Positions 4,720 to 62,566 of a stretch of DNA of 64,000 nt are shown here, piece by piece. The notes under the pieces were generated by a model that worked only from the letters and a program-made list of their open reading frames with translations, was not told where the DNA came from and did not search any database. The translations under genes were made by a program, and so were the position numbers. The stretch spans positions 149,741 through 213,740 of the forward strand of contig JBDRKW010000006.1 in NCBI GenBank assembly GCA_043813585.1, read 5' to 3'. This DNA is from Candidatus Kerfeldbacteria bacterium (GTDB taxonomy: Bacteria; Patescibacteriota; Patescibacteriia; UBA9570; XYC2-FULL-38-9). How positions within the stretch are numbered: position 1 is the stretch's first letter; each line of letters begins with the position of its first letter.

Positions 4720-4727
4720 AGTTGCGC

Positions 4728-39299: not shown

Positions 39300-39360
39300 A
39301 CAAAAAATTATTAATTAGGTAGTGTGGCAGTGAATCACCGTTCACTGCTTTGATCGAGTG

Positions 39361-39443
39361 TGCCGAAGGAGAGATTTGAACTCTCACGAGCTTGCGCCCA
39401 CAGCGACCTGAACGCTGCGTGTCTACCGTTTCACCACTTCGGC
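39361..39443 (-). tRNA. tRNA-Leu (anticodon CAG), long variable arm, no encoded CCA
   Basis: The reverse complement GCCGAAGTGGTGAAACGGTAGACACGCAGCGTTCAGGTCGCTGTGGGCGCAAGCTCGTGAGAGTTCAAATCTCTCCTTCGGCA has a class II tRNA cloverleaf, anticodon loop TTCAGGT and a GTTCAAATC T-loop. Confidence 0.8.
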
Positions 39444-43652: not shown

Positions 43653-44408
43653 TTAGAAGTCGAGCACGACGTAGAGGCGGCCCACAATGTCGCGGCCTGT
43701 ACAGGCAGCGGAAGAACCGTCGTTGCTGCAGCGGACCTGCATCGCGCCGACCAAGGTGAAGTGGTCGCCGAACGGCACGATGACGTGCGGTCCGGCGCCG
43801 ATCGACCCACCGCTGCCGTGCCAGGCCTTGCCTGCCTCGAACTCCATGCCGATTTTCATCAACACCTGTTTGCCGCGGCGCACCGGGACGTCTACTTCCT
43901 GAAAGGTGTAGGCCACCTGCGTCGTCGCCATCCCTTCGCCCCAGAAGTGGAGCCACGGGATCGCGGTTAGCGAGTACCGCAGGTCAAACACCGGCGCGAA
44001 CGGCGTGTCCGAGTCGGGGGAAGCGAGGCCGCCGCCCATGAACTCGATCCAACCATCGGCACCTGCGAACCTGGGACCAATGAACGCGACCGCTTCGGGA
44101 GCCCCATCCAGCAGGTTCGGCTCCACGAACCAGAACGCGACACCGGGGTCAACCGCACGACTGATGCCGGTGTCTTCCGCGGCGTGGTGCATCTTGGTGC
44201 CGTGCACCACCAAACGCGCCTCAGGGCTAAAACCGAATTCCTGCGCATGCGCCTTGAGCCCCATGGAGAAGATCAATGCGAGGGTCAACACCGCCAGTGT
44301 CGGGAAGTACCGCTGGATGTAGTTGTCGTCGCGGTCCTTCATGCTGTAAACGGTTGAGATCATCGCAATGACAATCGCTGCGAGCGTGAAAAAGTGGATG
44401 ATGAACAT
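43653..44408 (-). CDS. GC-rich hypothetical secreted protein with a β-barrel-like C-terminal signature (…YVVLDF)
   Basis: About 60% GC. SD GGAGG 7 nt upstream. It has a signal-like segment ending AHA-QE, alternating hydrophobic β-pattern and a terminal Phe. Confidence 0.35.
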   Translation of the reverse strand: MFIIHFFTLAAIVIAMISTVYSMKDRDDNYIQRYFPTLAVLTLALIFSMGLKAHAQEFGFSPEARLVVHGTKMHHAAEDTGISRAVDPGVAFWFVEPNLLDGAPEAVAFIGPRFAGADGWIEFMGGGLASPDSDTPFAPVFDLRYSLTAIPWLHFWGEGMATTQVAYTFQEVDVPVRRGKQVLMKIGMEFEAGKAWHGSGGSIGAGPHVIVPFGDHFTLVGAMQVRCSNDGSSAACTGRDIVGRLYVVLDF

Positions 44409-44501: not shown

Positions 44502-44577
44502 ATTTAGTGAGTGGCAAATACCACCACAGAGGAGATACTGCCGCTTTTGGCTAATATCAGCCCATTCCCCTACCCAT

Positions 44578-45354
44578 ATGTATATCGAACTGTTCCAAAA
44601 CCTCGGCCTGTCAAAAAACGAAGCGCAAATATATGAGGAACTCCTGAAACAAGGCGAAGCTTCAGTTTCCACAATTTCGAGTAAAACCAACATTAATCGC
44701 CGCAATATTTACGACGTACTCAATCGCATGATGGAAAAGGGTCTGGCAATCGCTGTTTTGCAGAAGGGTGAAACGCAGTTCAAACCGGTCGATCCGGGCA
44801 AGCTCATGGAAATACTCAAAGAAAAGGAAAGCATATTGCAGAAATCCATGCCTGACCTTGAAACGCTGTACAGGGCAACTCCGAAAGAGAATGAAGTGTA
44901 TATCTACCGCGGTCCTGAAGGGTGGAAGAATTACATGCGCGATATGCTGCGGATCGGCGAGCCGGCGTATTTCATCTCCGCAAAAGGGGGCTGGCTGGAT
45001 CAACGCGTGAAGGATTACTTCCCCACGTTTATGAAAGAAGCGCAACGCAAAAAAATGAAATTCTATCATCTTTTTGACGCGCGCGTGCCTGAAGAATGCC
45101 CGGAAATCCTGAAATATGTCACGAATAACTATAAATTCCTGCCAAAGGAATATTCAACACCGAGCGCAATCGATATTTTTGGTGATCATGTGAATGTTCT
45201 GGCCGATGTACAACTGGGCGGCCAGGAAGAAGATTTCTCTTTTACCGTGATTGTAAACCAAACAATCGCTGGTTCATTTAAGGTGTGGTTCAAGTACATG
45301 TGGGATTTTTGCCCAGACGTTAAGGGTAGCAAGCCAGGAAAACTGGCAATATAA
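44578..45354 (+). CDS. TrmB-family transcriptional regulator
   Basis: N-terminal wHTH MYIELFQNLGLSKNEAQIYEELLKQGEASVSTISSKTNINRRNIYDVLNRMMEKGL and a TrmB-type C-terminal domain. Confidence 0.65.
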   Translation: MYIELFQNLGLSKNEAQIYEELLKQGEASVSTISSKTNINRRNIYDVLNRMMEKGLAIAVLQKGETQFKPVDPGKLMEILKEKESILQKSMPDLETLYRATPKENEVYIYRGPEGWKNYMRDMLRIGEPAYFISAKGGWLDQRVKDYFPTFMKEAQRKKMKFYHLFDARVPEECPEILKYVTNNYKFLPKEYSTPSAIDIFGDHVNVLADVQLGGQEEDFSFTVIVNQTIAGSFKVWFKYMWDFCPDVKGSKPGKLAI

Positions 45355-45460
45355 ATAGGTCCATTGTTTTAGTCCCGAGCGTCAGGAACGGGATTTAAAA
45401 AAACTTGCAGAATCCCAAACGAATGCTACTCTCAACATGCGTTAATAACACATATTTCAT

Positions 45461-46282
45461 ATGAACAAACCGCAAGAAGAAACAGCCAGCTGGAACTACG
45501 CCGAACTTTGGGACAAATTTCCACCGCCGGCACGGCCATCAAAAGAAGAACTCGAATACCTGGAAAAGGAACTCCGTCCATTAGTTGCGGCAAATCCAGA
45601 TATAAAGCTGCTCATTCTGGGTTCGACCATCGAATACCGTTCACTCTGCAAAAAACTTGGAATCAAGCCGTATGTTGTTGACTTCAAAAAAGAACATTTC
45701 GACACACTGTCCGAATACGCTGACGAAAAATTCGAAGACGAACATTTTATCGAAGCCGACTGGCTACATCTGGAAGGAGAAGACACATACGACATCATCA
45801 TCGGCCACCGGCCATACAATGTGATCAGGCATGGTGAAATCGAACAGCTCTTCCGGGTTATGCATAAGGTTCTGAAACCTGGCGGCGTCTTTTACTGCAA
45901 GGGAAATATGATCAACCCGGACGCTCCGGACCGTCTTGAACAGATACGCGAACAATGGACGATGGAAGAAAACCGCGAATACCCATTATTCAGCTATATT
46001 GAAGTTGAACTCTACACGCACACCGCTGGAGAAAACGGTTACGTGGATTATCCAAAGGCACGAAAAATAATTAACGATTGGTTCGAGCAAGAGAAAATAT
46101 CCCAGGAAGATTATGACCTTGCGAAACTGCTTGTTTCAATGGATGCAGAAGCTCAATTCAGAAATGCAACAAAAGACGAAATCGATTCTGGAATAGAAGC
46201 GGCAGGTTTTTCATCATCTGAACAACTTGTTCTTGATAAAGAGATCTGCGAGAACATGCCGATTATCAAACTGACGAAATAA
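45461..46282 (+). CDS. Putative SAM-dependent methyltransferase-fold protein
   Basis: Weak motif I (LLILGSTIE) and post-I/III region VLKPGGVFY. Low confidence. Confidence 0.35.
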   Translation: MNKPQEETASWNYAELWDKFPPPARPSKEELEYLEKELRPLVAANPDIKLLILGSTIEYRSLCKKLGIKPYVVDFKKEHFDTLSEYADEKFEDEHFIEADWLHLEGEDTYDIIIGHRPYNVIRHGEIEQLFRVMHKVLKPGGVFYCKGNMINPDAPDRLEQIREQWTMEENREYPLFSYIEVELYTHTAGENGYVDYPKARKIINDWFEQEKISQEDYDLAKLLVSMDAEAQFRNATKDEIDSGIEAAGFSSSEQLVLDKEICENMPIIKLTK

Positions 46283-46283
46283 T

Positions 46284-47639
46284 ATGAAAAGGCGCATCAC
46301 AACCGAATTTTCTTCACCCAAACAATGGGAGGATGAAAAAGCCAAATACAAAAAAGGAGAACCGGTAGAAATGTATGCGCGTTACAGCTACCCGGAATTG
46401 CAAAAACGCGAAGAGGAATTTGCGGAAATGATCGGGGTACCGGATACCGCTCTGTTTAACTCTGGAATGGCCGCTATTCATACAACAATCGAAGCTGAAC
46501 AACTGCGGCCAGGCGATATCGTCATGTGCGCAAAAGAAGTGTACGGCATGACAAAAGAGGTAGTCGAAGCGTTAGCGGCAAAAGGAATAACAATCCACTA
46601 CTTTGATTCTGCAGATACTGAAGAATTTAAAAAAATGTCTGCTCAGTATCGACCGCGGCTTGTCGTTCTGGAAAGCATTGCAAACTCAAAAAACATGGAG
46701 GTCGCAAATATTGATGCACTGGCTGAAACCTGTGACAAACTAAATGAAAGCTACCAAAACGATTACACTGGGGAGGCAATCCTTTCGCGCTTCATAGAAA
46801 AAAAGGAACGATACGAAAACGTCTCTAATGAAACAAAGGGAATGCTTCAAGATGTAATTGAAGAATTCAAACGTGGGAATAACCCATTTGTATTCCGCAG
46901 CGCTATCCGCGCTCTCGAACAGGAGACGGGCCGACCGCGCCGCGAAACAATCCAAGATCTTTCAAAAATGGTGAAACACGTATTGAAACAAAGCAGAGAA
47001 AAAGTATCTCTTATAATCGACAACACACTCGCTTCCCCTGCCCTCTTCAATCCGCTATCGGAAACAGCAGGCCACGAAGTTGAAACGGTGGTTGTGGAAA
47101 GCGGTACAAAACATTTTCAGGCCGGGAAAGATAAAATTACGAGCGGTATCGCCTATTCAGATGATGAAGAGAAGATCAAAACGATAAAAAACGTACGTGC
47201 AATGATCGGCACCTACCTGCAGCCTGTTGCAGAAAAGGAAATCCCCAAAGATATTACAGAACAAATGCCGGAAATAATGGCCCGGCATGCAAAAAACGCA
47301 GTTGCTCTGGCTCAGCAGCTGGATAACACAGGAAAAATAGAAGTGTCCCATCCAAATCTACCGAAACACGAACAAAACGAACTCATTGAGACTATCGCAC
47401 CTGACGGAGCGGTAAGCCTCTTCTATATCAGAGTACCGGATGCACAAGCATTTATAAAAACGATAAAAGCAGCAGGCGGTGATTCTGTCGGAATCGGTTC
47501 TAGTTTTGGTCACGACAAAACATGGCTCTCCGATTTTGAACTCGAACCGGGGTCTGTGCGCATCGCAGTTGGCAGCGAGTCGGAAGAAGACTTCAAAAAA
47601 ACGCTTCAGATATTCGAACAGGTCCTACAGGCAATGTAG
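46284..47639 (+). CDS. PLP-dependent transsulfuration-family enzyme (cystathionine γ-synthase/lyase-like)
   Basis: FNSGMAAIHTTI and the candidate PLP-lysine region VVVESGTKHFQAG. Only 2 nt from the upstream gene, so likely an operon. Confidence 0.65.
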   Translation: MKRRITTEFSSPKQWEDEKAKYKKGEPVEMYARYSYPELQKREEEFAEMIGVPDTALFNSGMAAIHTTIEAEQLRPGDIVMCAKEVYGMTKEVVEALAAKGITIHYFDSADTEEFKKMSAQYRPRLVVLESIANSKNMEVANIDALAETCDKLNESYQNDYTGEAILSRFIEKKERYENVSNETKGMLQDVIEEFKRGNNPFVFRSAIRALEQETGRPRRETIQDLSKMVKHVLKQSREKVSLIIDNTLASPALFNPLSETAGHEVETVVVESGTKHFQAGKDKITSGIAYSDDEEKIKTIKNVRAMIGTYLQPVAEKEIPKDITEQMPEIMARHAKNAVALAQQLDNTGKIEVSHPNLPKHEQNELIETIAPDGAVSLFYIRVPDAQAFIKTIKAAGGDSVGIGSSFGHDKTWLSDFELEPGSVRIAVGSESEEDFKKTLQIFEQVLQAM

Positions 47640-47692: not shown

Positions 47693-49897
47693 ATGCCAAA
47701 GAAAAAAGCCACAAAAAAGGCGAAACCAAAAAAATCTACCCCCAAAAAAAACACTGGACGTGTATCTAAGGGTGATTTGATATTGAAGGAGCTGAACGAA
47801 ATGCAGCGCGAGGCAGCCGAGGCCACAGAAGGCCCGGTGTTGGTGCTTGCCGGAGCCGGTTCGGGCAAAACGCGCACCCTGATCCACCGCACCGCCTACC
47901 TTATTGCAGAAAAAGGGGTGAAACCATGGACTATCCTCGCCGTTACCTTCACTAACAAAGCAGCGCAGAACATGAAGGAACGTATGTCCGCATTACTTGG
48001 CGACATGAAGCATACTCCCGTCATGGGCACGTTCCATTCCATCTGTGCCCGCCTGCTCCGCAAAGAGATCCCCGCGCTCGGTTTTGAACGCAATTTCGTG
48101 ATCTACGGTGATGACGACCAGAAAGGCCTGGTCAAGAAAATCATGAAAGAGATGGGATACGACACCAAGCAGATCCCCGCCAACTCTGTCCACTGGAAAA
48201 TCAGCAGCGCGAAAAACCTGCTTATCGGCCCGGAAGAGTTTGAACAACTCGTGGATGACCCTATCAGCGAAGTCGCGGCAAAGGTGTATCCCAAATACCA
48301 GGAAGAGCTGCACAAGGCCAACGCGCTGGATTTTGACGATTTAATAATGAAGACGGTCGAATTGTTCCAGCAATTCCCTGAAATCCTCGCCAAATACCAA
48401 AAGATGTGGAAGTACATTTTGGTGGACGAGTACCAGGACACGAACAAGGCGCAATACACGCTCGTCTCGCTGTTGGCAGACGACAACAAGAACATCTGTG
48501 TTGTGGGCGACGACTTTCAATCCATTTACAGCTGGCGCATGGCGGACATCCGAAACATCCTCGACTTTGAAAAGGACTACCCGGATGCGACCGTCGTCCT
48601 GCTCGAGCAGAACTACCGCTCCACCCAGACCATCCTGGACGCATCGAACGCAGTGATCGCCAAAAACAAGAACCAGAAAAAGAAAGTGCTCTGGACGGAA
48701 AATGACCTCGGCGAAAAAATAATCGTTAATGAAGTGGAGGACCAGGAAGCCGAAGGCCGGTTCATCGTGGAACAAATCATCAACATCGAAACCGGCGACG
48801 GGAAGGTAGCAGGCAGCAGCACGCCGGAACTGAAATACGAAAACGACGAATACGCGCAGCCCGACCCGGCCGACCAAGAAAACATGCAGCCGATCCAGGA
48901 GGGTGAAAGCATCCTGGAACGCGTGATGCGCTCCAAGATGTTCGAACAGAACCGCGAGGCGCAGGATTTACAGCAGAAAGTGGATGCCAACAAGAAAGCA
49001 ATCGACTTCTCGCGCTATGTGGTGCTCTACCGCACGAACGCGCAGTCCCGCGCAATTGAAGAAGCATTCCTCAAATACAACATCCCGTACAAAATCATCG
49101 GCGGCATCCGGTTTTACGAACGCATGGAGATCAAAGACGCCATCGCCTACCTTCGCGTCATGTTCAACCCGGCCGACTGGGTGGCGCTCGAACGCATCTC
49201 CAACACGCCGGCACGCGGCATCGGCGACCGCACCTGGATAAAAATCGAACAATTCGCCGCACAACGCGGATTCAACATAGTAGAAGCGGCAGGACAGGCC
49301 ATTCCCGACATCCAAAACGCGCGCTTGTCGGCGTTCTACCAGTTTGCAGAGATCATCAAGACCGTGCGCGACAAAATGGAAGAGCTGAACCCCACGGAGA
49401 TCCTGGATATGGTCCTCAAAGAGATCGGCTACAAGGAACACCTGTTCAACACCACGGAGACAAAGGAAAAAGCAGAGGCAAAATGGGAAAATGTGCAGGA
49501 GTTGAAGAATGTCACGCAGAAATTCGCGAACTTGCGCGGGGCAGAAGGGCTGGAAGCGTTCCTGGAAGAAGTCTCGCTCGTCATGGACCAGGACAACGTG
49601 GACGAATCAGAAAACGTCGTGAAGCTCATGACCGTGCATGCGGCCAAAGGGCTGGAATTTCCGGTAGTGTTCGTGGTTGGCATGGAAGAAGGGCTGTTCC
49701 CCCACTCGCGATCGCTCATTGACCCGAAAGAAATGGAAGAAGAACGCCGGCTGTGCTACGTGGCGCTCACCCGCGCGATCGAACGGGTATACCTGGTGCT
49801 CGCCAGCCAGCGTATGCGCTGGGGAAACGTGCAGGTAAACCCGCCGTCGCGCTTTATCGACGATATTCCGGACGAATTGATGATCTGGCTGCAATAG
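47693..49897 (+). CDS. pcrA: ATP-dependent DNA helicase PcrA/UvrD
   Basis: SF1 motifs (AGAGSGKT Walker A, DEYQDTN, C-terminal VALTRA). A basic N-terminal tail MPKKKATKKAKPKKS. TTGCAT..TACAAT promoter with the -10 9 nt before the ATG. Confidence 0.9.
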   Translation: MPKKKATKKAKPKKSTPKKNTGRVSKGDLILKELNEMQREAAEATEGPVLVLAGAGSGKTRTLIHRTAYLIAEKGVKPWTILAVTFTNKAAQNMKERMSALLGDMKHTPVMGTFHSICARLLRKEIPALGFERNFVIYGDDDQKGLVKKIMKEMGYDTKQIPANSVHWKISSAKNLLIGPEEFEQLVDDPISEVAAKVYPKYQEELHKANALDFDDLIMKTVELFQQFPEILAKYQKMWKYILVDEYQDTNKAQYTLVSLLADDNKNICVVGDDFQSIYSWRMADIRNILDFEKDYPDATVVLLEQNYRSTQTILDASNAVIAKNKNQKKKVLWTENDLGEKIIVNEVEDQEAEGRFIVEQIINIETGDGKVAGSSTPELKYENDEYAQPDPADQENMQPIQEGESILERVMRSKMFEQNREAQDLQQKVDANKKAIDFSRYVVLYRTNAQSRAIEEAFLKYNIPYKIIGGIRFYERMEIKDAIAYLRVMFNPADWVALERISNTPARGIGDRTWIKIEQFAAQRGFNIVEAAGQAIPDIQNARLSAFYQFAEIIKTVRDKMEELNPTEILDMVLKEIGYKEHLFNTTETKEKAEAKWENVQELKNVTQKFANLRGAEGLEAFLEEVSLVMDQDNVDESENVVKLMTVHAAKGLEFPVVFVVGMEEGLFPHSRSLIDPKEMEEERRLCYVALTRAIERVYLVLASQRMRWGNVQVNPPSRFIDDIPDELMIWLQ

Positions 49898-49922
49898 ATT
49901 GAAAAACGACATCGGAAGCTAT

Positions 49923-49950
49923 ACAGCGCCTATCAACGGCGCTTTTCTTG
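49923..49950 (+). terminator. Rho-independent terminator after pcrA
   Basis: AGCGCCtatcaacGGCGCTTTTCTT. Confidence 0.55.
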
Positions 49951-50080
49951 ACTTCTCTGCCTGATGCGGTAAGAAGGGTAGGTAAACCGGGCAGGAATAT
50001 GGCGGGTTTCGGGCTAATAGAGGCCCGGGGCTCAAACGATCATAGTGATCCGATTCCTGTTTGGTGCACGAGGAGAAATC

Positions 50081-51403
50081 ATGCCTAGTGGCGAAGAGGA
50101 CGCTCTGTCCAGACTTGTGACTGCTGCCGTCGACCCGTGGAAACGGACCGACAAGCACCACCTGAACCAGGGGTTGCTGGCGCTTGAAGGCAAGCACACC
50201 GACCTGCTGCCGAATGAACAGTTCAGGTGCCGGATTCCGGTGTCCGAAGGCGAGATCAAGACTGCGGTGTCCGAAGACGGCGCGGTCACAGTTGGTGGTT
50301 TGGACGATTCTGGCATGCACCAGCTGTTCGTGGCTGCGCCCGACAGCACTCGGTTCACGCCGGTGCTGAAACAGCCGGTCGGCGAGATCCGTGCGGTCTG
50401 CTTCCCAAGCGGCAGCAACCGACCGGCGTGCGTTGCCGGCGACGACTTCGACTCCTGGAGGGTCATCTGGGACGACTGGGAAGCGGTCTTCTCCGTGCCG
50501 GTCCGGACGTACCTGAACCCGTTCGCAACGCAGCAATGCTGGCTCACCTGCTGGATGGAAGACGGCCAAAAAAACGCATTCATCATGACGTACGGCATGT
50601 CCGAGATGCTGACGAAGAAACCTGATGGAACTGTCCGAATCACACACTACCCGAAAGGGGGCGCACGAGTCATCGGCGTATTCGACGGCAGTGCAGTTGT
50701 CATGCCGGACCGACGGCTGAACAAACCCATCACATACGGGGATTTCACACTCCCCAAGACGAGCGACTTCAACCGCCACCACGTCCAGGCGCATCCGGAG
50801 GGCGGCATCATCATGGTGGGCTTCGACCTCGACAGCACCACATCACCGTCCAACTTCATCGCCACCTCATTCAACAGGTCGATCAGGTACGTGGAGCAAG
50901 GAGGATTGTTCCTGGTCAACGGCGAAGTGTACAGCAACCATCTGACGGGGAATGATCCGCACAACCGGCAGAACACGGTGGTCTCGCTCGATGGCAGCTG
51001 GCAGACGAAGTCGTCAATCGCCGGAATCGCTGTACAGGGGTTCAGATACGGCGACGGTTCGCTTGCGGTCACCACGGGCCGGCTAGAGTCGCAGGTGTTG
51101 TGTCTCTTCGATCGGGACGGAAACAGTACGTTCGAGTACCGGATCGGAAGCGGGCACTTCACGCCCGACGGCCGCCTTCTCTTCCCGGGTGGATGGTACT
51201 ACCCGCAGACCTTCGCCGGCATGGAAGAGTCGATGCGGCGCACTCTCACCATAATGCCCATTCGCCTCGGGCAACGCTCACTCCACCAGATGACGCTCAT
51301 CAACGAAAACGAGCTTATGGGCATTCATCCGGTGGGCAACGGCCAGCTTGCGGTTCACCGCTGGCTGCCGATGGACCCGGACGTCGACCTGACGGTCGAG
51401 TAA
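50081..51403 (+). CDS. GC-rich hypothetical protein (440 aa), β-rich
   Basis: About 62% GC. SD GAGGAG 5 nt upstream of the ATG. No recognisable motifs. Confidence 0.5.
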   Translation: MPSGEEDALSRLVTAAVDPWKRTDKHHLNQGLLALEGKHTDLLPNEQFRCRIPVSEGEIKTAVSEDGAVTVGGLDDSGMHQLFVAAPDSTRFTPVLKQPVGEIRAVCFPSGSNRPACVAGDDFDSWRVIWDDWEAVFSVPVRTYLNPFATQQCWLTCWMEDGQKNAFIMTYGMSEMLTKKPDGTVRITHYPKGGARVIGVFDGSAVVMPDRRLNKPITYGDFTLPKTSDFNRHHVQAHPEGGIIMVGFDLDSTTSPSNFIATSFNRSIRYVEQGGLFLVNGEVYSNHLTGNDPHNRQNTVVSLDGSWQTKSSIAGIAVQGFRYGDGSLAVTTGRLESQVLCLFDRDGNSTFEYRIGSGHFTPDGRLLFPGGWYYPQTFAGMEESMRRTLTIMPIRLGQRSLHQMTLINENELMGIHPVGNGQLAVHRWLPMDPDVDLTVE

Positions 51404-51540
51404 CGTCCACACCGAACTACGGTTCGGTCCTTTTTTTACGCGGGCTTGCACGGTTCCGGGAAATCGGTTATACTATTGCCCAGTGCACGACACTTCGTCT
51501 CACCCTTTTTTAAAAAATCCATAATATATTTTGAGGAGTA

Positions 51541-51968
51541 TGGCAGCCAAAAAAAAACCTACGAAAAAAAAGCCGGCAGCGAAAAAATCCGTAAAGAAAG
51601 CAACAACGGCAAAGAAGAAACCGGCTGCAAGGAAAAAAGCTCCTACGAAAAAGAAAGCGACAAAACGCGGGTCCTCTGCCCCGAAAAAACCAACTGTCCT
51701 GAAAAGCGAAATCCTGGAAACCATCGACAGCTTTACTGACGTGGAAACGCCGCAGATGGAAACCACGCCGGAAACACCGCAGGCAACAGAAAAAGTATTT
51801 ACCTTCACGCACGTTGGCGAATTCTTTCTGGCGATCGTCATGCTCTCGCTCGTTTTCCTGACCGCCCTGTACTGGATCATCAGCGTCAGCCAGCCGGCCC
51901 TGTTTTCACAGATCGACAGCCGCGGAGGCATCTGCTCCATCCAGGAGACGCTTGCGCTCAAGCAATAG
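51541..51968 (+). CDS. Histone-H1-like basic (AKK/KKP-repeat) N-terminal domain fused to a single TM helix
   Basis: MAAKKKPTKKKPAAKKSVKKATTAKKKPAARKKAPTKKKATKR followed by FFLAIVMLSLVFLTALYWIISV. An intrinsic terminator follows. Confidence 0.5.
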
Positions 51969-51990
51969 GACAAACACACGCCAAACACAA

Positions 51991-52013
51991 ACGCCCCATG
52001 ACGGGGCGTTTTA
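51991..52013 (+). terminator. Rho-independent terminator
   Basis: ACGCCCCatgacGGGGCGTTTT. Confidence 0.6.
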
Positions 52014-52041
52014 TAATTCTGCGTTGTTGAAAAAAGAAGCA

Positions 52042-52728
52042 TCATCTGCGCAGCCTTCTCTTGATGTCATCCAGTTGGATGACATGAGCTGACGCCGATG
52101 ATGCCGGCATCGTTGTTTTTCCCGTGGTTCCTCCCATGGCGTAGACGAGCGCATGCTCGTCCTTCTCGTCCTCCTTGTCGTCGTCGCCGTCCGGGTTCAC
52201 GTCCGAAACCGCGTAGTAGGTGTCGCGGTCGATCTGGACCATGAAGGTTCCTGTCTCGTCGTAGACGAGGGTGCGGTCGGGGGTTCGCGGCGATGCGATG
52301 GTGCGGTCAGAGGTCTGCATGAGGATGCGCCGCTGGGTGCGCCACCTGTTGTAGTTGTCCAGCGCCGCCTGGAACCCGGGCGCGGAGCGCGTCGACGGGA
52401 ACCTTGGGGCGTCCTCGGTCCAGTTGACGTCGGCGTAGAACGGGATCAGCGTCTCGCTGTAGAGCAGGACATCGGCGCTGCCGTTGCCGTTGTCCCTGAC
52501 CTGCAGACGAAATCCCGACTTGGTGCCCAGCGTGAACTGGACGTCGTTGTCCAGTATGAACTTCCCGGCCGGGAAGCTCCTGTACGAGAACGTGATGCGA
52601 ACCCATGCGTAGAGCAGCCGGATCTGGAGCAGTTCCAGCTTCTCGATCATGGGTAGTGGCCGCACCCGCCGCAAAGCAGGTGTGTTCGTTGCCCGCACTC
52701 GGGTCAACGGCTTTTTCCAGCGGTCCAT
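52042..52728 (-). CDS. GC-rich hypothetical protein (about 228 aa)
   Basis: About 62% GC. The likely start is the second Met (MDRWKK), which has GGAGGT 5 nt upstream. An acidic DGDDDKEDEKDE stretch and an RRLRR tail. Confidence 0.45.
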   Translation of the reverse strand: MDRWKKPLTRVRATNTPALRRVRPLPMIEKLELLQIRLLYAWVRITFSYRSFPAGKFILDNDVQFTLGTKSGFRLQVRDNGNGSADVLLYSETLIPFYADVNWTEDAPRFPSTRSAPGFQAALDNYNRWRTQRRILMQTSDRTIASPRTPDRTLVYDETGTFMVQIDRDTYYAVSDVNPDGDDDKEDEKDEHALVYAMGGTTGKTTMPASSASAHVIQLDDIKRRLRR

Positions 52729-52947
52729 TCTGACCTCCATAGCGTTCCCTGACGGAACACTTTGGTTGGGATTGTCGATGTCCGTTGCCCAAGGCGGATT
52801 ATAAGAGTATATCCGCCCGCCCCCTCCCGGGGGCCACGTGCTGTGTGGGACTAGTCACCCTACAACATAAATTCGCCATTTGTCAAGCCATAACTGTTAA
52901 TACCGAAAATGCAGGTCACGCCCGTATATCTGCCCATATTCCAGGCA

Positions 52948-52976
52948 TTGACAAAACGCGTTGACTGACCTATAAT
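52948..52976 (+). promoter_or_regulatory. Perfect-consensus sigma70 promoter TTGACA-17-TATAAT
   Basis: TTGACA at 52948-52953, a 17-nt spacer and TATAAT at 52971-52976. It is about 45 nt upstream of the 659-aa acidic protein gene. Confidence 0.6.
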
Positions 52977-53019
52977 AACGCGTTAAAATAAGCATGTATT
53001 AGCCAAATAAATACTTTTT

Positions 53020-54999
53020 ATGCCAGAACCCAAAGGAATCCCAATTGGTCCCGCAAAGGCCGAAGCACGCCCAACGCCAGTACCGGTCAAACCGGGTGAA
53101 AGAGAAGTGCCTCCGATTACCCGCGAGGACCTGAAAGTTGTCCGGGGAGATGGCGGCGGGGAGATGGCGGCAGAACCGCAGGGCGATGACGCCTATGATC
53201 CCGCAAAAATGGAGCGGTATTATCCGGAAGATCTGTTGAATGTACTTGGCGCGAAGATCGAAGCGGCAACCGGCCAAAAAGTAAATCTGAAATACCAGGA
53301 ATTTACCCTGCAGGAAGCGGGCGGCAAACCGGGTGAAGCAAAAGCGGTTCGCAAAAACGGGGAACAGTATGCAAGCGAACTGATGCAGGCCATGACAAAA
53401 TCCGATAACAAACAGCTGGACGACTTCTACCTGTCGCGCTTTGAACCGGCGACCGACCAGGCGCTGGCGGCCAAACAGCCCCTCACTGAACAGCAGCTGG
53501 CGGCCGCAGTCGTGGCAGAAGCCGCGCGCATGGTTCATGACAACCCAAAAATACGCGAGGCGGTACTGGCAGCGCAGTTTGGTTTTACTTCCATTAATGA
53601 AATTTCAAAAGAATCACTGAATAAGAAGATAAACGATCTCTACGACGCGGAACGCGCAAAAGCCGGCGCTATGACCCCGGAGGTTGCGGCAAAGCTGCAA
53701 TCCTTTATGGATTGGCAGGAACGGCTGGAAGGCATGTTGCTTGATGCGCATGAAAAAGCGGAAAAACTTCGCGGCGAGGCGGCAGAATTGGTTGAAGAGA
53801 TAAAACTGCCGGAGCTGGATATTGAACCAATGGCAATGCCGGAGATTCCCAAAGCCGAATTAAAAGCGGAAGACCTGGAAGCAATAACGGAAACGCCGGC
53901 CGAAGCGCGCGGACGCATTGAACAGCTCCGCATAGCGCTGGACGCAGAGCTGGGCGCAACCCGCTTTGAAGAACGCGGCGTCTGGAGCCGTTTGAAAAAT
54001 ATTGCCACTGAACTGAAAGGCGCGCGCGCCAAGCAGGGCAAGCTGCGCGACCAGCTGAAACAGCTGGACCGGTTTAGCGCTGAAATGAACGATAACAACT
54101 ACAAAGAATACATGGCAAAGATGGATGCGATGCAATCCATGATGGCTGAACAGTTTGAAATCAAGACGCTCCCGGAACTGCGCCCCATAGAAGCAGCAAC
54201 AGAAGCGCCTGCTGCAGAACTCCCGCCGGAACAACAGCCGGCCACAGCAGAAGAAGAAAAAGAGCGCATGATGATCTCTGCGGAAATTGCGGATATTATC
54301 GGCATAGACCAGCCGGAGCAGGCGGCGGCGGAAGAGGAATTCTTCTCCACCGGAGCGCGCGAAACCAAGCCGGCGGCTGAAACAGATATGCCGATTGACG
54401 CGAAGGCAGTGGCAAACCTCCAGCAGCTGGAATACGGCGACCTTGAAATGATGCTCAAGCAGGTGGAGGGCCAGATGGGCGCTGAAAAAGGCGATGCGCT
54501 CAAAGCGCTGCAGATGCGCGAATCGGCGATTACCGAAGCAATGCGTACGCATCCGAGCAATGAAGGCGCGCTGAAGGCAGAAGCGGCTGCGGAAGAGGAT
54601 GAAGACATCCCGCCGACCGAACAGGCGCTTGACCTCGGGCAGCAGCCCGTGGAGCGCGTCCCTATGACCAAGCTGAAAGCGGAATACAAAGAATTTGATA
54701 CCAACGATGTGACCATTGAAGAACAGAAGATCCTGCAGGAATTTGATTTGGATACGCAATTCCTCACCGAAAAATCGATGGACGACCCGGAACGAACAAC
54801 AAAGATGCTGGTTGCGATGAAAACGCGCATCAATGAAAAAGCTGCAGAAATGAAAACGGAACTAAAAGCATCCGGCGTGACCGACCAAAAAGAAATTGAC
54901 GAGCAGGTCGGCGCATACACAGAACGGCTGTATGAGATGTATGACCGCATGTACGTGCTGGAACAACTGCCGAGACCGGAACGCATGAAAGACAAATAG
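53020..54999 (+). CDS. Large (659 aa) acidic, E/A/K/Q-rich, predicted coiled-coil protein of unknown function
   Basis: Long uninterrupted ORF driven by a consensus promoter and ending at a strong terminator. No TM or enzymatic motifs. Confidence 0.55.
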   Translation: MPEPKGIPIGPAKAEARPTPVPVKPGEREVPPITREDLKVVRGDGGGEMAAEPQGDDAYDPAKMERYYPEDLLNVLGAKIEAATGQKVNLKYQEFTLQEAGGKPGEAKAVRKNGEQYASELMQAMTKSDNKQLDDFYLSRFEPATDQALAAKQPLTEQQLAAAVVAEAARMVHDNPKIREAVLAAQFGFTSINEISKESLNKKINDLYDAERAKAGAMTPEVAAKLQSFMDWQERLEGMLLDAHEKAEKLRGEAAELVEEIKLPELDIEPMAMPEIPKAELKAEDLEAITETPAEARGRIEQLRIALDAELGATRFEERGVWSRLKNIATELKGARAKQGKLRDQLKQLDRFSAEMNDNNYKEYMAKMDAMQSMMAEQFEIKTLPELRPIEAATEAPAAELPPEQQPATAEEEKERMMISAEIADIIGIDQPEQAAAEEEFFSTGARETKPAAETDMPIDAKAVANLQQLEYGDLEMMLKQVEGQMGAEKGDALKALQMRESAITEAMRTHPSNEGALKAEAAAEEDEDIPPTEQALDLGQQPVERVPMTKLKAEYKEFDTNDVTIEEQKILQEFDLDTQFLTEKSMDDPERTTKMLVAMKTRINEKAAEMKTELKASGVTDQKEIDEQVGAYTERLYEMYDRMYVLEQLPRPERMKDK

Positions 55000-55015
55000 T
55001 CGCATACGCGATACA

Positions 55016-55047
55016 CGAAAAAACCGGCATTCCTGCCGGTTTTTTTC
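55016..55047. terminator. Bidirectional rho-independent terminator between the convergent acidic-protein gene and uvrC
   Basis: aaaaaaCCGGCAttccTGCCGGttttttt. Confidence 0.6.
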
Positions 55048-56663
55048 TACACCATCCCTTTGAGGTGGCGTTTGCGGTAAAATCCGATGGCAAAACGGTG
55101 CGCCTCATCGCGCATGCGCTGTACTAAATATAATCCTTCTGAGTTGCGTTTTAATAATACTGATTGCGATTCGCCCGGTATAAATATCTCTTCCTCGCGC
55201 TTGGCAAGGGATATTAACGGGATCTTCAGGCCGGTCGCGTCCAAAATCGCCTTCACAGCATTTAACTGCGGTTTGCCGCCGTCAACAATAATCAGGTCCG
55301 GCCGCGGCCAGGGCTGGGTGCTGCCTTTCACCTTTTTGGGCAGGTGCCGAACGCGGCGCGAAACGATCTCCTGCAGCGACGCTACGTCATTTGCGCCAAC
55401 CACGCCTTTGATCTTGAACTTCCGGTATTCAACCGGCTCCGCAAGCCCATCCTTAAACACCACCATCGACCCGACCGAATACTTTCCCTGGATATTCGAG
55501 ATATCATAAATTTCAATGCGGCCGAGCTTGGCAGCATCCAGCCCGATGGCCGCGGCAAGCTCCGTCAACCCCTTCTTCGCGCGCTCGTCATGCTTTTCAA
55601 ACGACGCCTTCTGCCGCTTCAGCGCCTCCCCGGCATTCTCGATGCCCATCTCCAGCATTTTCTTGTGCCTGCCGCGTCGGGACTCGATGCTCAAATAGAC
55701 ATTCTTCGGAACCGACTCGGTCTGCGCATAATACTGGTCTGCAAACGCCCCCAGCACGTCATCGTCGCTCTGGTCGCGCGTGTGCTTCAGGAAAAACACC
55801 TCCTGGTGGATCATCTTCCCACGCCGCACCACAAACAGATTCACCGCCGCCGTCCCGTCCATGCGCGCCAGCGACAGATAATCGGCATCTTCCTGCCGCG
55901 GCGACACCACCTTCTGCTTCACCATTAACTTATCGATCGAAAGCAGCTGGTCGCGCAGCTGCGCCGCCTTTTCAAACTGCTTCAAATCAGACGCACGAAC
56001 CATCTCCCGCTCTACATACGCGCGCACCGGTTCATAATCCCCGCGCAAGAACTGTTCGATCTGTTTAAACACTGCCCGGTACTCGTCCGCACTGATCACA
56101 TCCGCGCACGGGCCCAAACAACGCCCCATCTGGTAATCCAGACACGGCCGCTTTGGGAACACGACCTTCCCGCGCACTTCCCGCGGCGGCGACGTACAGA
56201 TATGGAACAGCTGCTTCATCAGCCGCATGGCGCGCTTCACCGCAAACCCAGAAATGTACGGGCCAAAATACTTCCCGCTCCGCCCGCGCAGCGGAATCTT
56301 CCGCGTCGTTTCCAGCACCGGGTACTTGTCATCTGTTATATGGATATACTGGAAATTCTTGTCGTCCTTCATCACGATGTTGAACGGCGGCTTGTACTTC
56401 TTGATCAGCGTCGTCTCCAACAACAGCGCCTCCGACTCGTTATCAACCACCGTCACCGCAACATCCGCAACAGAACGAACCATCACGCGCTTGGCATCGG
56501 ACAAATCGGCAGAATCGCGGAAATACGACAGCACGCGTGAACGCAAATTCGTCGCCTTACCTATATATAAGAGATGCTTGTCCACATCCAAAAACTGGTA
56601 CACGCCGGGTTTTGCCGGCAGGGACCGCACCTTTTCCATCAATTTTTTGCGAACGTCAGCCAT
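55047..56663 (-). CDS. uvrC: Excinuclease ABC subunit C
   Basis: GIY-YIG (GVYQFLD..LLYIGKATNLRSR), UvrBC, RNase H-like endonuclease and (HhH)2 domains. Confidence 0.9.
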   Translation of the reverse strand: MADVRKKLMEKVRSLPAKPGVYQFLDVDKHLLYIGKATNLRSRVLSYFRDSADLSDAKRVMVRSVADVAVTVVDNESEALLLETTLIKKYKPPFNIVMKDDKNFQYIHITDDKYPVLETTRKIPLRGRSGKYFGPYISGFAVKRAMRLMKQLFHICTSPPREVRGKVVFPKRPCLDYQMGRCLGPCADVISADEYRAVFKQIEQFLRGDYEPVRAYVEREMVRASDLKQFEKAAQLRDQLLSIDKLMVKQKVVSPRQEDADYLSLARMDGTAAVNLFVVRRGKMIHQEVFFLKHTRDQSDDDVLGAFADQYYAQTESVPKNVYLSIESRRGRHKKMLEMGIENAGEALKRQKASFEKHDERAKKGLTELAAAIGLDAAKLGRIEIYDISNIQGKYSVGSMVVFKDGLAEPVEYRKFKIKGVVGANDVASLQEIVSRRVRHLPKKVKGSTQPWPRPDLIIVDGGKPQLNAVKAILDATGLKIPLISLAKREEEIFIPGESQSVLLKRNSEGLYLVQRMRDEAHRFAIGFYRKRHLKGMV

Positions 56664-59597: not shown

Positions 59598-60626
59598 TTA
59601 CGCCACTGCGGTCCTTTCCGCTTCCTCGAACCGTCGTTTAATTTGATCGGGTATGACGGCGATCGCCAGACGATCATCAGGCTTGGCACCGCGAACCTTC
59701 CGCACCTCGTTTATCAGCGCCTGCGAAGGGTTGTCGCCCGCTTCCAATGCGGCAATGACGGTCCGCACAATATAGTCGTCCGGCAGAACGTCGCGGATGC
59801 CGTCACTGCAGCCCAAAACAATATCTTTGCGCAAATCAATCTTGCGGCTAGTCACATGCGGTTCCAACTTGCCTTCTATCCCCAGGCTCTTCGGAAGCAC
59901 GCTTAAAAATACATTCCCACGGTTACCCTCCAGCTCTTTTAACGCCTCTTCGCGCGTGCACTCTTTCGAAGCCATCACATGTTTGAGGCGCAACTCCACC
60001 GCTTCTACGCCTGCAGCAGCCAGCGCTTGTAATATGCCAGGCGTCAGCACTGTGTCTTTTTTCAGCCTCCCGCCCGGCACCTCAACGCCTGCAGCTGTCA
60101 GCGCCGCATCCACCTCCTGCTGCGGATCATCATTCACCGTAAACTGTTCAATCGTCCGTTCTTCGATGTTAATAACAAATCCCGGGCTGTCGCCGATACT
60201 TGCGCTCGTCACCCGACCCTCGTTCTCCGACAGCTTTTCAAACAATGTCACGTTCATCGTGGTCTTTCCGCCCTCCCCGTTGCGCTTCACCGCTTCATTC
60301 ATATCCGCCGTAACGTTGCGCAGATACTTTCCCCGCTTGTCCGGGTCACCGAATAACTTCGCAGCATTTTCCTGCGCAGCGGCGGCCGCAGCGCGCGATG
60401 CCTTCACGCCAGAACCTTCAGGTCCGCCCTTGGAAGCGCCGTCGTATATGCCTATCACAAATCCTTCGCCTTCGGGGGCTTTAATCAGCTGACCGGTATC
60501 CTCGTTGCGCGTCGGATGGTCCGGGCTCGCTTTGGTCGCATAACTGATCGTAAAACCGGGCTCGGTGCGTTCGCGCGCCTCCTGCGCCTGTTTTTTCGGC
60601 CGAAATTCAATGGAAGTTGTTGCCAT
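59598..60626 (-). CDS. PP2C-family Ser/Thr protein phosphatase-like protein
   Basis: IGIYDGASKGG (DGxGG-like), LGCSDGIRDVL and the terminal DDRLAIAVI resemble PP2C/SpoIIE motifs. Moderate confidence. Confidence 0.5.
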   Translation of the reverse strand: MATTSIEFRPKKQAQEARERTEPGFTISYATKASPDHPTRNEDTGQLIKAPEGEGFVIGIYDGASKGGPEGSGVKASRAAAAAAQENAAKLFGDPDKRGKYLRNVTADMNEAVKRNGEGGKTTMNVTLFEKLSENEGRVTSASIGDSPGFVINIEERTIEQFTVNDDPQQEVDAALTAAGVEVPGGRLKKDTVLTPGILQALAAAGVEAVELRLKHVMASKECTREEALKELEGNRGNVFLSVLPKSLGIEGKLEPHVTSRKIDLRKDIVLGCSDGIRDVLPDDYIVRTVIAALEAGDNPSQALINEVRKVRGAKPDDRLAIAVIPDQIKRRFEEAERTAVA

Positions 60627-60727
60627 ACATTATACGTTTATTGCTCACGCTTGTACTATATATGATGTGGGGAAGAACGCAAAAAAACGGCCTCGTGAGC
60701 CGCTTTATGATTGATATAACACAAAGC

Positions 60728-62071
60728 TTACGATTGCGCCTTCCCGCGGTGCCGCACAAAACCAAACGTTCCGAGCCCCAGCCCGAACGCGACAATCATC
60801 GTCAGCAAAGAAAATTCCGGAACAGCCCCCGCTTCAGGCCCGTTCTCATCAGCACCTTGGTCATAATTTGTGCCCACAGGCATAGGACGCGTTTGCCCAT
60901 CAATATCTAAGCCGCTAAACGTAGCAGGGAGCGAAGTTGTTCCCTCCTCTTCAGCCGGCGAACCTGTCAGGATGTGATATGTCCCATCTAATAAAGGATC
61001 TGCATCTTGAGAAGCCGCATCATCGCCAGAAGCTGATTGCCAATCACCGAGTGAAGTTGCCGGCGTACCATCCCAACTACCCACGTCTGCCGAACCCCCG
61101 GAGCTATAAATCAAATTATTATCAGAGTCCCATCCTGTTGCTGAAGCGAAGATATATAGACCAATACCTCCACTGGGTGGTTGAATGATGTTATTGCGAA
61201 GATAGGTGTTCTCACAACCGAATAACTCAATTTCTGAGCCTTCAGAGTCATCACCATCTGCAACAGTATTATGAACTAACTCTAATCCATCAGATAGAGA
61301 TCCAGAAATTTGTGCAGCGCCCGCACCAATGTCCGTCGAATTGTTATACAAAATATTATTGTGAACCACTGTATCAACAACATACCATGTAGAGCGCCCA
61401 GAAGTACCGATTATATAAATGCCGGAATAACCATTTGAATAAATGTAGTTTCGGCGTACTTCATTGTCTGCAATCATTCCCCCTAATGCGTAGATTTCAA
61501 CACCATTCGTTCCATTGCTGTAAATACTGTTATTTCGAATGATATTGCTGCTCGAATCCATAACCTGCACACCATCTTCCGTTGCATTACGTATTACGTT
61601 GTACTGAAGAATATTGCCAGATCCGCCGCTAATAACGACGTTATGCAAATCAACCCCCTGAAATATAAAATTTTCAAATGTTACGCCGGTTCTGCTGCTT
61701 AAGTTAATCCCATAATCCCCTCCTGTATTTTGGATAATCGGCGATCCTACCCAGTCGGTCCATGTAGTATTATCATGACTAAATGAATCCAATACCAACG
61801 TTTGAAGCGATGCTCCGTTTACATCGCACGTTCCTCGAACATACACTGTTTCTCCTGCCGCTACCTGACTAGCTGCATATTGAAGCGTCGAACATTCGCT
61901 TCCTACGGTACAACCACCCGAATCATTACCAGGGACATCACAATCTACATATCGGTCAGCAGCAAATGCAGCACTAGGCAAAACTACGAAAAAAGCTGCC
62001 AATAAAGCAGCAGTTATTGCAAATGTTCTAATCCGAACAGCACCACGTAGTTGTGACCGTTTTTCTGGCAC
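60728..62071 (-). CDS. Secreted right-handed parallel β-helix (PbH1 repeat) protein with a PEP-CTERM-like C-terminal sorting signal (…VPEFS + TM + RHRGK)
   Basis: Signal peptide and repeated N.I..N/GxxG β-helix rungs. The C-terminus AVPEFSLLTMIVAFGLGLGTFGFVRHRGKAQS has the tripartite exosortase/archaeosortase-signal architecture. Confidence 0.5.
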   Translation of the reverse strand: MPEKRSQLRGAVRIRTFAITAALLAAFFVVLPSAAFAADRYVDCDVPGNDSGGCTVGSECSTLQYAASQVAAGETVYVRGTCDVNGASLQTLVLDSFSHDNTTWTDWVGSPIIQNTGGDYGINLSSRTGVTFENFIFQGVDLHNVVISGGSGNILQYNVIRNATEDGVQVMDSSSNIIRNNSIYSNGTNGVEIYALGGMIADNEVRRNYIYSNGYSGIYIIGTSGRSTWYVVDTVVHNNILYNNSTDIGAGAAQISGSLSDGLELVHNTVADGDDSEGSEIELFGCENTYLRNNIIQPPSGGIGLYIFASATGWDSDNNLIYSSGGSADVGSWDGTPATSLGDWQSASGDDAASQDADPLLDGTYHILTGSPAEEEGTTSLPATFSGLDIDGQTRPMPVGTNYDQGADENGPEAGAVPEFSLLTMIVAFGLGLGTFGFVRHRGKAQS

Positions 62072-62233
62072 CTTTTTTTGTTTTAAGAAGATAAAGGCAG
62101 AATTGCCCCTATCTAAAGATAGTATAACACAATTTCATTATTAATGCAAGCCTTCTTTCATTGACACCCCTCTGCCCTATTGATACCCTCACTTTCCAAG
62201 GGATCGCATGAAAAATGCGAGAAAGGGGGAAAA

Positions 62234-62566
62234 ATGACCAGGGAATTCACTGTCAACATGGAGGATCAGAACTCCATCGGTCACGCATTCGTGGTAATGC
62301 TGATTCACCGCTATCTGCGGTACCCGGAACAACTCCGGGTGCAGATCCAGCGGATCGACGACAAGAATGTCGTGGTGCACATCCGCGCGCACCCGGTCGA
62401 CAAGGCCATGCTGGATGAATGGAAGCGCACCAACAGCAGCCAGCTGATTGCGCTCAGCACCATGCTGGCCCTGCACGCGCACCAGAACGTACTCCCGATC
62501 TACAGCATTCGGGATCACAACAGCCCGCTGCCGGGCGACACTGCATCGCGGAAGAGTATCGCGTAA
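62234..62566 (+). CDS. GC-rich small hypothetical protein (111 aa)
   Basis: SD GAAAGGGGG 4 nt upstream of the ATG. About 62% GC. A terminator-like hairpin and T-run follow at 62567-62615. Confidence 0.45.
   Translation: MTREFTVNMEDQNSIGHAFVVMLIHRYLRYPEQLRVQIQRIDDKNVVVHIRAHPVDKAMLDEWKRTNSSQLIALSTMLALHAHQNVLPIYSIRDHNSPLPGDTASRKSIA

Follow-up and report, generated by a model that had tools for sequence, protein, structure and literature searches.

Conserved and orphan genes in the pcrA–uvrC interval of a Candidatus Kerfeldbacteria genome: a probable mosaic junction

The interval between pcrA and uvrC in this genome is probably a mosaic and variable junction between conserved genes, and not a single insertion. 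Its older layer would consist of the genes termed here B and D, its younger layer of the GC-rich orphans A and C. This reading is based on the window, i.e. the whole stretch of 64,000 nucleotides that was analysed, and on a comparison with three to four relatives, among which three genomes (L001, L002 and L005; PcrA 63–70% identical) were readable past pcrA.

Gene organisation and transcription signals

The open reading frames of the window are arranged in the order pcrA (47693–49897, plus strand), A, B, C, D and uvrC (55047–56663, minus strand). A (50081–51403, plus strand; NCBI ABIG66_02465) encodes 440 aa, B (51540–51968, plus strand) 142 aa and D (53020–54999, plus strand; NCBI ABIG66_02480) 659 aa. 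C (52042–52728, minus strand) encodes 228 aa when read from the Met at 52728; its NCBI record, ABIG66_02475, comprises 202 aa and starts at 52650. The first-pass annotation had placed four function-less genes between pcrA and uvrC, one of them coding for a protein of about 228 aa on the opposite strand, and all four reading frames were found as described. None of A–D matched a Pfam, NCBIfam, PHROG or PADLOC family above threshold.

pcrA is closed by an intrinsic terminator at 49925–49943 (plus strand; hairpin followed by UUUUCUU; −11.7 kcal/mol, z −2.8). A, a self-terminated cassette, is sited behind the stop codon and terminator of pcrA and ahead of the promoter of B. It carries the Shine-Dalgarno (SD) sequence GAGGAG at 50070–50075, 5 nt upstream of its ATG, and is closed by a terminator at 51411–51436 (plus strand; hairpin at 51411–51428 with a 7-bp stem, then U7; −12.4 kcal/mol). 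The probable promoter of B follows at 51443–51474 (plus strand; GGCTTGCAC-N17-TATACT). A similar box is present at 62121–62152 on the minus strand, where it precedes another gene. The convergent genes B and C are separated by a bidirectional terminator at 51989–52011 (−15.7 kcal/mol on the plus and −18.6 kcal/mol on the minus strand), while D and uvrC have one in common at 55017–55046 (both strands; A-run, 6-bp GC stem, U-run; −17.3 kcal/mol, z −6.0 and −4.7). A terminator after B and a strong bidirectional one after D had been claimed before, and both hairpins fold accordingly. An Rfam scan identified no RNA family in the A–D block nor in the GC-rich segments of the relatives. A–D are monocistronic modules, each with its own signals; this is a part of the earlier reading that survives.

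Composition and coding potential of A and C

Three of the genes had been considered GC-anomalous. This holds for A (GC 0.604) and C (GC 0.619), which fall into the top 2.4–2.7% of windows of the same size; B averages 0.51, its one GC-poor part being the tail (0.448), owing to the lysine codons there, and D is normal among windows of its size. A, C and D are orphans. Among 5.8 billion proteins, A retrieved only itself, and C and D only their own records. An HMMER scan of 1.84 G representatives with A returned its own record plus P0004, a DUF5907 repeat protein; the latter match covers a 27-residue low-complexity stretch and was rejected as an artefact. PDB sequence searches with A, C and the B profile gave no match.

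Such isolation might be taken to mean that A and/or C are non-functional, i.e. ORFs that arose by chance or very recently (de novo) in a GC-rich, stop-poor spacer, a possibility we regard as unlikely. Self-matches only, among billions of proteins, would be expected in that case. The codon scores point the same way: with a codon model trained on the housekeeping genes of this window, in which six frames were scored per ORF, A and C reached 0.26–0.29 bits/codon vs 0.5–0.6 in housekeeping genes. Furthermore, shuffled versions of the C segment were occasionally stop-free over the full length (maximum 229 codons), and AF2 yielded no confident fold for A. However, the annotated frame was the best of six in both genes, as it was in B and D, and the 440 codons of A exceed every shuffle (maximum stop-free length 313). 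Both genes display GC3 > GC1 > GC2, the pattern expected of coding sequence, with a GC3 of 0.83 in C. Both possess an SD sequence, which in C is GGAGG, 5 nt upstream of the Met codon at 52728, as well as terminators just beyond their 3′ ends, and both were annotated by NCBI. Moreover, the N terminus of C resembles that of an orphan occupying the same slot in L001, the similarity beginning at an SD-preceded Met in both proteins. This similarity is marginal and was in part selected post hoc (p 0.03 overall; p 0.0075 for the first 16 aa).

C carries an Asp-rich acidic patch close to its C terminus. For A, the earlier description as a 440-aa β-rich protein with an SD sequence was correct in length and SD; the β-rich character derives from an AF2 single-sequence model of pLDDT 32 with about seven groups of 3–4 strands, and A is possibly beta-rich. 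A beta-propeller was considered as a candidate fold for this strand pattern. Repeats with a period near 60 aa within A reach scores no higher than the upper end of the null distribution, and no Pfam repeat family was matched. One shared GC-rich element, copied into A, C, the L001 orphan and the segments of the window at 19.9, 28–30 and 43.6 kb, was also considered. It was rejected, as blastn and tblastx matches among these sequences were at chance level, the D promoter excepted.

The junction in related genomes

A B-like gene follows pcrA in all three readable relatives. The order in L001 is pcrA, the B-like gene, a minus-strand orphan, an 861-aa acidic protein, uvrC and uvrA. In L005 it is pcrA, the B-like gene, a 298-aa acidic protein and uvrC, and in L002 pcrA, a 69-aa basic protein and the B-like gene. 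Thus, an acidic protein occupies the position of D beside uvrC in L001 and L005. The slot of C is empty in L005 and holds the orphan in L001, with a GC of 0.614 in a genome of 0.45–0.47. A has no counterpart in L001, L002 or L005 and is, as judged from these sequence comparisons, the sole gene of the four unique to this genome; its absence from the relatives may reflect gain here or loss elsewhere alike. The B-like and D-like genes of L005 lie 9 bp apart, which leaves no space for a promoter of the latter, and hence they look like an operon. Comparison of the pcrA–uvrC spacing, as had been proposed, revealed an interval of variable length: against 5149 bp in this genome, L001 has 4842 bp and L005 1285 bp. 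Other junctions vary between the genomes too, namely those between the SBP gene and pcrA and between uvrA and the gene at 62642.

The first-pass annotation had read the block as an inserted accessory region and had set conserved synteny of the four genes against this view. Synteny was found in part: B is present in three of three relatives, two of them (L001 and L005) have a counterpart in the D position, and L001 also has a gene in the slot of C, while A occurs in none. That the whole block represents one horizontally acquired accessory island between repair loci is very improbable and, on this synteny, already largely refuted. Several properties would suit an island: the four genes lack functional annotation, A and C are GC outliers, the interval differs in length among genomes and a promoter or terminator of its own accompanies every gene. 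It is these modular, variable and compositional features of the region that stand. Insertion as one unit is contradicted by the retention of B after pcrA in three relatives and by the D promoter, which is conserved in L001 (see below). D is also host-like in codon usage, scoring 0.547 bits/codon vs 0.605 for pcrA, as housekeeping genes do. Absence from the same site in close relatives applies to A only. With respect to anomalous composition, A and C are outliers in GC yet have a host-type frame signal, and B and D are normal.

Hallmarks of mobility were likewise missing. Family searches with the block revealed no integrase, transposase or mobility gene; the sole tRNA in the window (39360–39443) is located about 10 kb upstream of the block; and neither flanking repeats beyond chance size around the block nor insertion scars around A or C were detected. 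A, C and D had no phage matches, A had no plasmid or viral-contig match, and no PADLOC defence model was matched by A–D or their L001 counterparts. These results bear equally on the idea of a defence, toxin-antitoxin or phage-derived hotspot. The variable, orphan-rich and modular layout adjoining conserved genes might suggest one, but with a TM segment of B (E 0.005) as the only PADLOC or PHROG match and with no phage or viral-contig matches, we give this idea hardly any credence.

In a mosaic junction, as preferred here, the B- and D-like genes would be the older layer; they look operon-like in L005 and are apart in this genome and in L001, where D has its own conserved double consensus promoter. 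The younger layer would comprise the A cassette, seen in this genome only and situated between the pcrA terminator and the B promoter, and C, which lies antisense in the slot between B and D, a slot taken by a GC-rich orphan in L001 and vacant in L005.

Gene B and its family

Residues 1 to about 50 of B constitute a Lys/Ala/Pro-rich, H1-like tail with a net charge of +15.6. It contains the repeats KKKPAAKK and KKKPAARKKAPTKKKATK (KAAK/PAAK, H1/H5 type). A linker follows, and then one predicted C-terminal TM helix at about residues 93–118 (19-residue Kyte-Doolittle maximum 2.54 at 96–114). The previous designation as a basic-tail/TM protein is therefore borne out. B shares clear homology with the genes that come after pcrA in L001, L002 and L005 (z 10.9–13.4). 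The hydrophobic C-terminal helix is kept in 4/4 B homologues and includes the invariant motif GE..L...LV.L...YW. The same hexamers as in the B promoter, at N18 spacing, precede the B-like gene of L005, and TTGCAC-N17-TATAGT precedes that of L002; the box appears to be of a promoter type recurring in this genome.

A B-family HMM matched just 4 of the 94 sequences examined, these being B and the genes of L001, L002 and L005. A UvrC-anchored metagenome scan recovered 80 loci, all ≤43% identical since the search peptides were too conserved, and the B family was in none of them. We regard the B family as a candidate for lineage-specific, tail-anchored H1-like proteins fixed beside pcrA in Kerfeldbacteria. 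According to the positive-inside rule, the polycationic N-terminal tail would face the cytoplasm. By analogy with the mycobacterial protein Rv3852 (see Discussion), it may bind DNA there, with the C-terminal helix as a membrane tether.

Gene D and its double promoter

D is preceded by a double promoter and leader (52948–53003, plus strand). P1 (52948–52976), TTGACA-17-TATAAT, agrees with the consensus in 12/12 positions, and is overlapped by P2 (52961–52989), TTGACT-17-TAAAAT. The leader is AT-rich and devoid of a Shine-Dalgarno sequence. A textbook consensus promoter at 52948–52976 had been recognised before; the second, overlapping one is added here. The element is kept nearly base for base in L001 at 14278–14334 (z 8.1; 0/1000 shuffles), unlike the other intergenic regions of the block, which are not conserved vs L001. 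It occurs once in the window and, among the relatives, has an exact match in L001 alone.

The protein itself is Glu/Ala-rich with a pI of 4.6 and a net charge of −48. Its acidic nature had thus been correctly described. For the coiled-coil character also proposed, a crude heptad test gave 4 windows vs 2.3 ± 3.6 in shuffles, no excess over the shuffles, and the AF2 single-sequence model, mostly alpha-helical with Pro-rich linkers, has a pLDDT of 47. No DivIVA or other Pfam domain was detected in D.

Conservation of the promoter is not paralleled in the protein. The similarity between the two genomes extends through promoter and leader up to the ATG and ends there; BLASTP, Smith-Waterman alignment against shuffles and hhalign with an L001+L005 alignment all failed to relate D to the acidic proteins of L001 and L005, while these two are homologous to each other, weakly but collinearly. 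It is conceivable, though in our estimation improbable, that D is not orthologous to them and that an unrelated gene has replaced the original one behind the conserved promoter. D and its L001 counterpart nevertheless share strand and position, an equally acidic, Glu/Ala/Pro-rich composition, a Pro-rich N terminus and the absence of an SD sequence, and their most hydrophobic stretches peak at residues 148 and 149, respectively. Proteins of low complexity, whether helical or disordered, are known to become too divergent to align. Orthology of D with the acidic proteins of L001 and L005 is thus suggested by position, strand, composition and promoter DNA. In the reading preferred here, D would be a polyanionic helical protein, strongly and independently transcribed and retained beside uvrC.

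Discussion

For a CPR genome the A–D block is a typical and fairly ordinary patch of lineage-specific hypotheticals, with no field-changing result. Three aspects deserve attention. The B family provides a candidate nucleoid-membrane tether in organisms of almost unknown cell biology. In the D promoter almost every base was kept, while the encoded protein diverged past alignment. Finally, GC-rich orphans in the same intergenic slot across genomes of differing base composition bear on the origin or acquisition of orphan genes in reduced genomes.

The charges of the B tail and of D climb in parallel in three genomes (+12.5/−11.6, +15.6/−48 and +34.5/−78; n = 3). This invites the speculation, to which we assign a low likelihood, that B and D are a Kerfeldbacteria-specific polycation/polyanion pair. 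It would consist of a membrane-tethered H1-like DNA binder and a highly expressed acidic helical partner with co-evolving charges, kept beside pcrA and uvrC-uvrA, and its B–D slot would repeatedly host GC-rich orphans. D could serve as a scaffold for B or as a buffer by DNA mimicry. The partnership, like any function of A and C, is something we infer. If it is real, a nucleoid-envelope link of the Rv3852-Wag31 type would have been invented independently in an ultra-small episymbiotic bacterium.

The junction resembles the ORFan islets of CPR/Patescibacteria in having a conserved backbone (SBP gene, pcrA, uvrC, uvrA and the gene at 62642) with genome-specific hypotheticals in between, A, C and D being the orphans here. 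It differs from them in that the B family and a promoter element are kept, so that it is not purely variable filler.

Among histone-like proteins, Chlamydia Hc2 (Pfam PF07382) and the Burkholderia H1-like family (NF038053) share the KKxA/PAAKK low-complexity composition of the B tail. The matches of H1-like families to this tail are weak (E 0.02–0.09); with PF07382, B scores 15.3 bits and its L001 homologue 13.3, vs a gathering threshold of 40. In addition, both are soluble and without a TM anchor, whereas B has a predicted TM helix.

The closest parallel in architecture is Rv3852 from Mycobacterium tuberculosis, a nucleoid-associated protein with KAAK/PAAK repeats that is held at the membrane by its C-terminal helix and binds the coiled-coil scaffold Wag31 (PMC8233713). 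B, too, is small, with a Lys/Ala/Pro-rich tail of the H1/H5 type preceding a single C-terminal hydrophobic helix, and just as Wag31 is a helical scaffold, the neighbour of B is a long protein predicted to be helical. By sequence, however, D is not DivIVA/Wag31-like, and B scores 13–15 bits (14.6, 13.4) against a cut-off of 100 for NCBIfam NF050153, an HMM that matches a single member of the four-member B family. Rv3852 is described as confined to M. tuberculosis and its close slow-growing relatives among the mycobacteria, while B comes from another phylum and bears its own conserved motif in the TM helix. Judged on these scores and motifs, B resembles Rv3852 in architecture and lies outside the Rv3852 family.

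Organisation of the pcrA-uvrC interval

The interval between pcrA (47693–49897, plus strand) and uvrC (55047–56663, minus strand) in this metagenome-assembled genome of Candidatus Kerfeldbacteria (CPR/Patescibacteria) most plausibly consists of a conserved core of two genes (B plus D or a D-like counterpart) together with two GC-rich orphans (A and C). The four open reading frames named in the first-pass annotation are present: A (50081–51403, plus strand, 440 aa, GAGGAG ahead of the ATG; NCBI ABIG66_02465), B (51540–51968, plus strand, 142 aa, with a lysine-rich tail and a single TM helix), C (52042–52728, minus strand, 228 aa, GGAGG ahead of the Met) and D (53020–54999, plus strand, 659 aa, acidic, without a Shine-Dalgarno sequence; NCBI ABIG66_02480). 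For C, the NCBI record (ABIG66_02475, 52042–52650) chooses a later Met, giving 202 aa. A codon model was trained on 16 housekeeping genes of the window and all six frames were scored per ORF. The annotated frame was the best of six for each gene, at 0.26 (A), 0.31 (B), 0.29 (C) and 0.55 (D) bits per codon, with uvrC and pcrA at 0.51–0.60.

The terminators and consensus promoter reported from the sequence are likewise real. Hairpins fold 3' of pcrA (49925–49943), 3' of A (51411–51428, followed by U7), between the convergent B and C (51989–52011) and between D and uvrC (55017–55046; folding z −6.0). The D promoter at 52948–52976 matches 12 of 12 consensus positions and is overlapped by a second (52961–52989; TTGACT-17-TAAAAT). 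The C–D intergenic region yielded no clear sigma-70-type promoter for C. At 52795–52835 it contains the palindrome GGCGGAT-N11-ATCCGCC and then a G/C-rich run (GCCCGCCCCCTCCCGGGGGCC), both upstream of the minus-strand gene C.

Base composition

GC over the window is 0.529, with an SD of 0.04 among windows the size of a gene; A (0.604) and C (0.619; GC3 0.83) rank within the highest 2.4–2.7% of these. D is ordinary (0.541) and B (0.51 overall) is low only in its lysine-codon tail (0.448), an amino-acid effect, so that the three GC-anomalous genes first proposed reduce to two. Further GC-rich patches lie near 20 kb (a 254-aa ORF), 28.4–30.5 kb and 43.7–44.4 kb; compositional patchiness therefore belongs to the genome and not to the block alone. 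The largest comprises two adjacent hypothetical genes (28415–29467 and 29572–30528, both minus strand; GC ~0.61) without Pfam domains, which are weakly paralogous (54 residues matched by BLASTP, E 6e-5). At 43653–44408 (minus strand), within the variable interval that precedes pcrA, lies a GC-rich orphan of 251 aa (GC 0.62, GC3 0.81) with hydrophobic N-terminal segments and no match in a Pfam search. It adjoins a low-GC trio (44575–47639; 0.44–0.45) encoding a TrmB-type regulator, a methyltransferase and a Cys/Met PLP enzyme.

Comparison with relatives

Scanning species-representative genomes with PcrA as the anchor gave four to five relatives (PcrA identity 63–70%). From pcrA, the window reads A, B, C (minus strand), D, uvrC, uvrA (pcrA-uvrC gap 5149 bp). 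Locus L001 reads B-like (229 aa), a GC-rich minus-strand ORF (353–405 aa), an 861-aa acidic protein, uvrC, uvrA (4842 bp); L005 reads B-like (107 aa), 9 bp, a 298-aa acidic protein, uvrC (1285 bp); and L002 reads a 69-aa basic protein, B-like (212 aa), contig end. The 69-aa protein is a pure KRKPAKRKAAPKKKVAA repeat. L001 is labelled ‘uncultured Gammaproteobacteria’, yet shares gene order with the window and is 70% (PcrA) and 81% (UvrA) identical; it is probably mis-binned or mis-assigned. The L005 label, ‘Candidatus Microgenomatus auricola’, likewise fits oddly with 63% PcrA identity and the common gene order. In L004, a 38%-GC relative, the pcrA match is broken by ~900 bp (4474–5390; intein, insertion or assembly problem), and pcrA is followed by a GC-rich stretch (6842–7292; 0.51–0.53) without a clear ORF or Rfam match, which might be an unrecognised structured RNA.

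No counterpart of A was found in any of these loci, and no repeats, tRNA or mobility genes were found flanking A, C or the whole block. The compared genomes likewise vary in the stretch before pcrA and in the one after uvrA. At a further variable junction, three genes (59598–62566) that L001 lacks separate uvrA from the conserved gene at 62642, whose L001 homologue directly follows uvrA: a 342-aa ORF without a Pfam match, a 128-aa ORF and a beta-helix/NosD-like protein (GC 0.455, GC3 0.35, poor host codon score). The first-pass observation was largely correct. Its reading as an inserted region holds only in part, since the B family and the D promoter are conserved and island hallmarks are lacking; what the block represents is a commonplace variable junction in a CPR genome, in which a few features are mildly interesting.

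The orphans A and C

Among 5.8 billion proteins A, C and D each matched only themselves, and so did A when 1.84 billion representatives were scanned in full with HMMER, its single extra match being rejected as a repeat artefact. Nothing significant was returned from Pfam, NCBIfam, PHROGs, PADLOC, PDB, phage genomes, plasmids or viral contigs. The proposed β-rich character of A recurs in a low-confidence model, which also shows faint ~60-residue repeats. C shows marginal similarity to the L001 minus-strand orphan (p 0.03 overall; p 0.0075 over the first 16 residues, both starting at SD-preceded Met); the L001 ORF stands out by its GC of 0.614 in a genome of 0.45–0.47.

D and its promoter

The sequence preceding D is conserved in L001, as TTGACAAAA..CG.TTGACTGA..TATAAT.....GTTAAAAT.AA..ATG.ATTAG (z 8.1; 0 of 1000 shuffles reach the score; other intergenic regions z −0.7 to 2.1), which places D behind an orthologous promoter. 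The motif (23 specified bases) occurs once in the window and, among 93 loci, in L001 only. D and its L001 counterpart share place, strand, acidic Glu/Ala/Pro-rich composition and the lack of a Shine-Dalgarno sequence. Two collinear segments align weakly between the acidic proteins of L001 and L005 (p 0.001–0.007); D aligns with neither protein. D is an ortholog that has diverged extremely, or else a replacement. It is predicted to be largely helical, with linkers rich in Pro (pLDDT 47), and a crude heptad test gave no support for the classical coiled coil suggested earlier. The AT-rich leader without Shine-Dalgarno (window 52984–53019; L001 14313–14346) contains a tiny upstream ATG (ATGTATTAG in the window, ATGATTAG... 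in L001), which may bear on D translation.

The B family and its likeness to Rv3852

B-like proteins of the relatives are clearly homologous to B (Smith-Waterman z 10.5–13.4 against shuffles), with the motif GE..L...LV.L...YW invariant in the TM helix; a B-family HMM found these proteins and B in only these 4 of 94 sequences (the window and 93 loci). The probable B promoter (51443–51474; GGCTTGCAC-N17-TATACT) is found again in L005, immediately downstream of the pcrA stop, and L002 has a similar version of it. On this basis the A cassette lies upstream of B's own promoter. A functional link between B and D is hinted at by their apparent operon in L005 and by a parallel rise in B tail charge and D negative charge (+12.5/−11.6, +15.6/−48, +34.5/−78), a trend inferred from n = 3 genomes. 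A Lys-rich H1-like extension (MPKKKATKKAKPKKSTPKK...) at the PcrA N terminus (window 47693–47770; L001 9950–10040) is similar to the tail of B, whose gene lies further downstream in the window and directly downstream in L001.

For B, the only matches were sub-threshold ones with H1-like families and with the Rv3852 family (13–15 bits for the latter, cut-off 100); having failed this HMM test, B is placed outside the Rv3852 family. By the positive-inside rule its tail should be cytoplasmic. Mycobacterial Rv3852 is a KAAK/PAAK-repeat nucleoid-associated protein, which a C-terminal helix tethers to the membrane and which binds the coiled-coil scaffold Wag31 (PMC8233713). B has its architecture, and the likeness, offered as an analogy, concerns how B might work.
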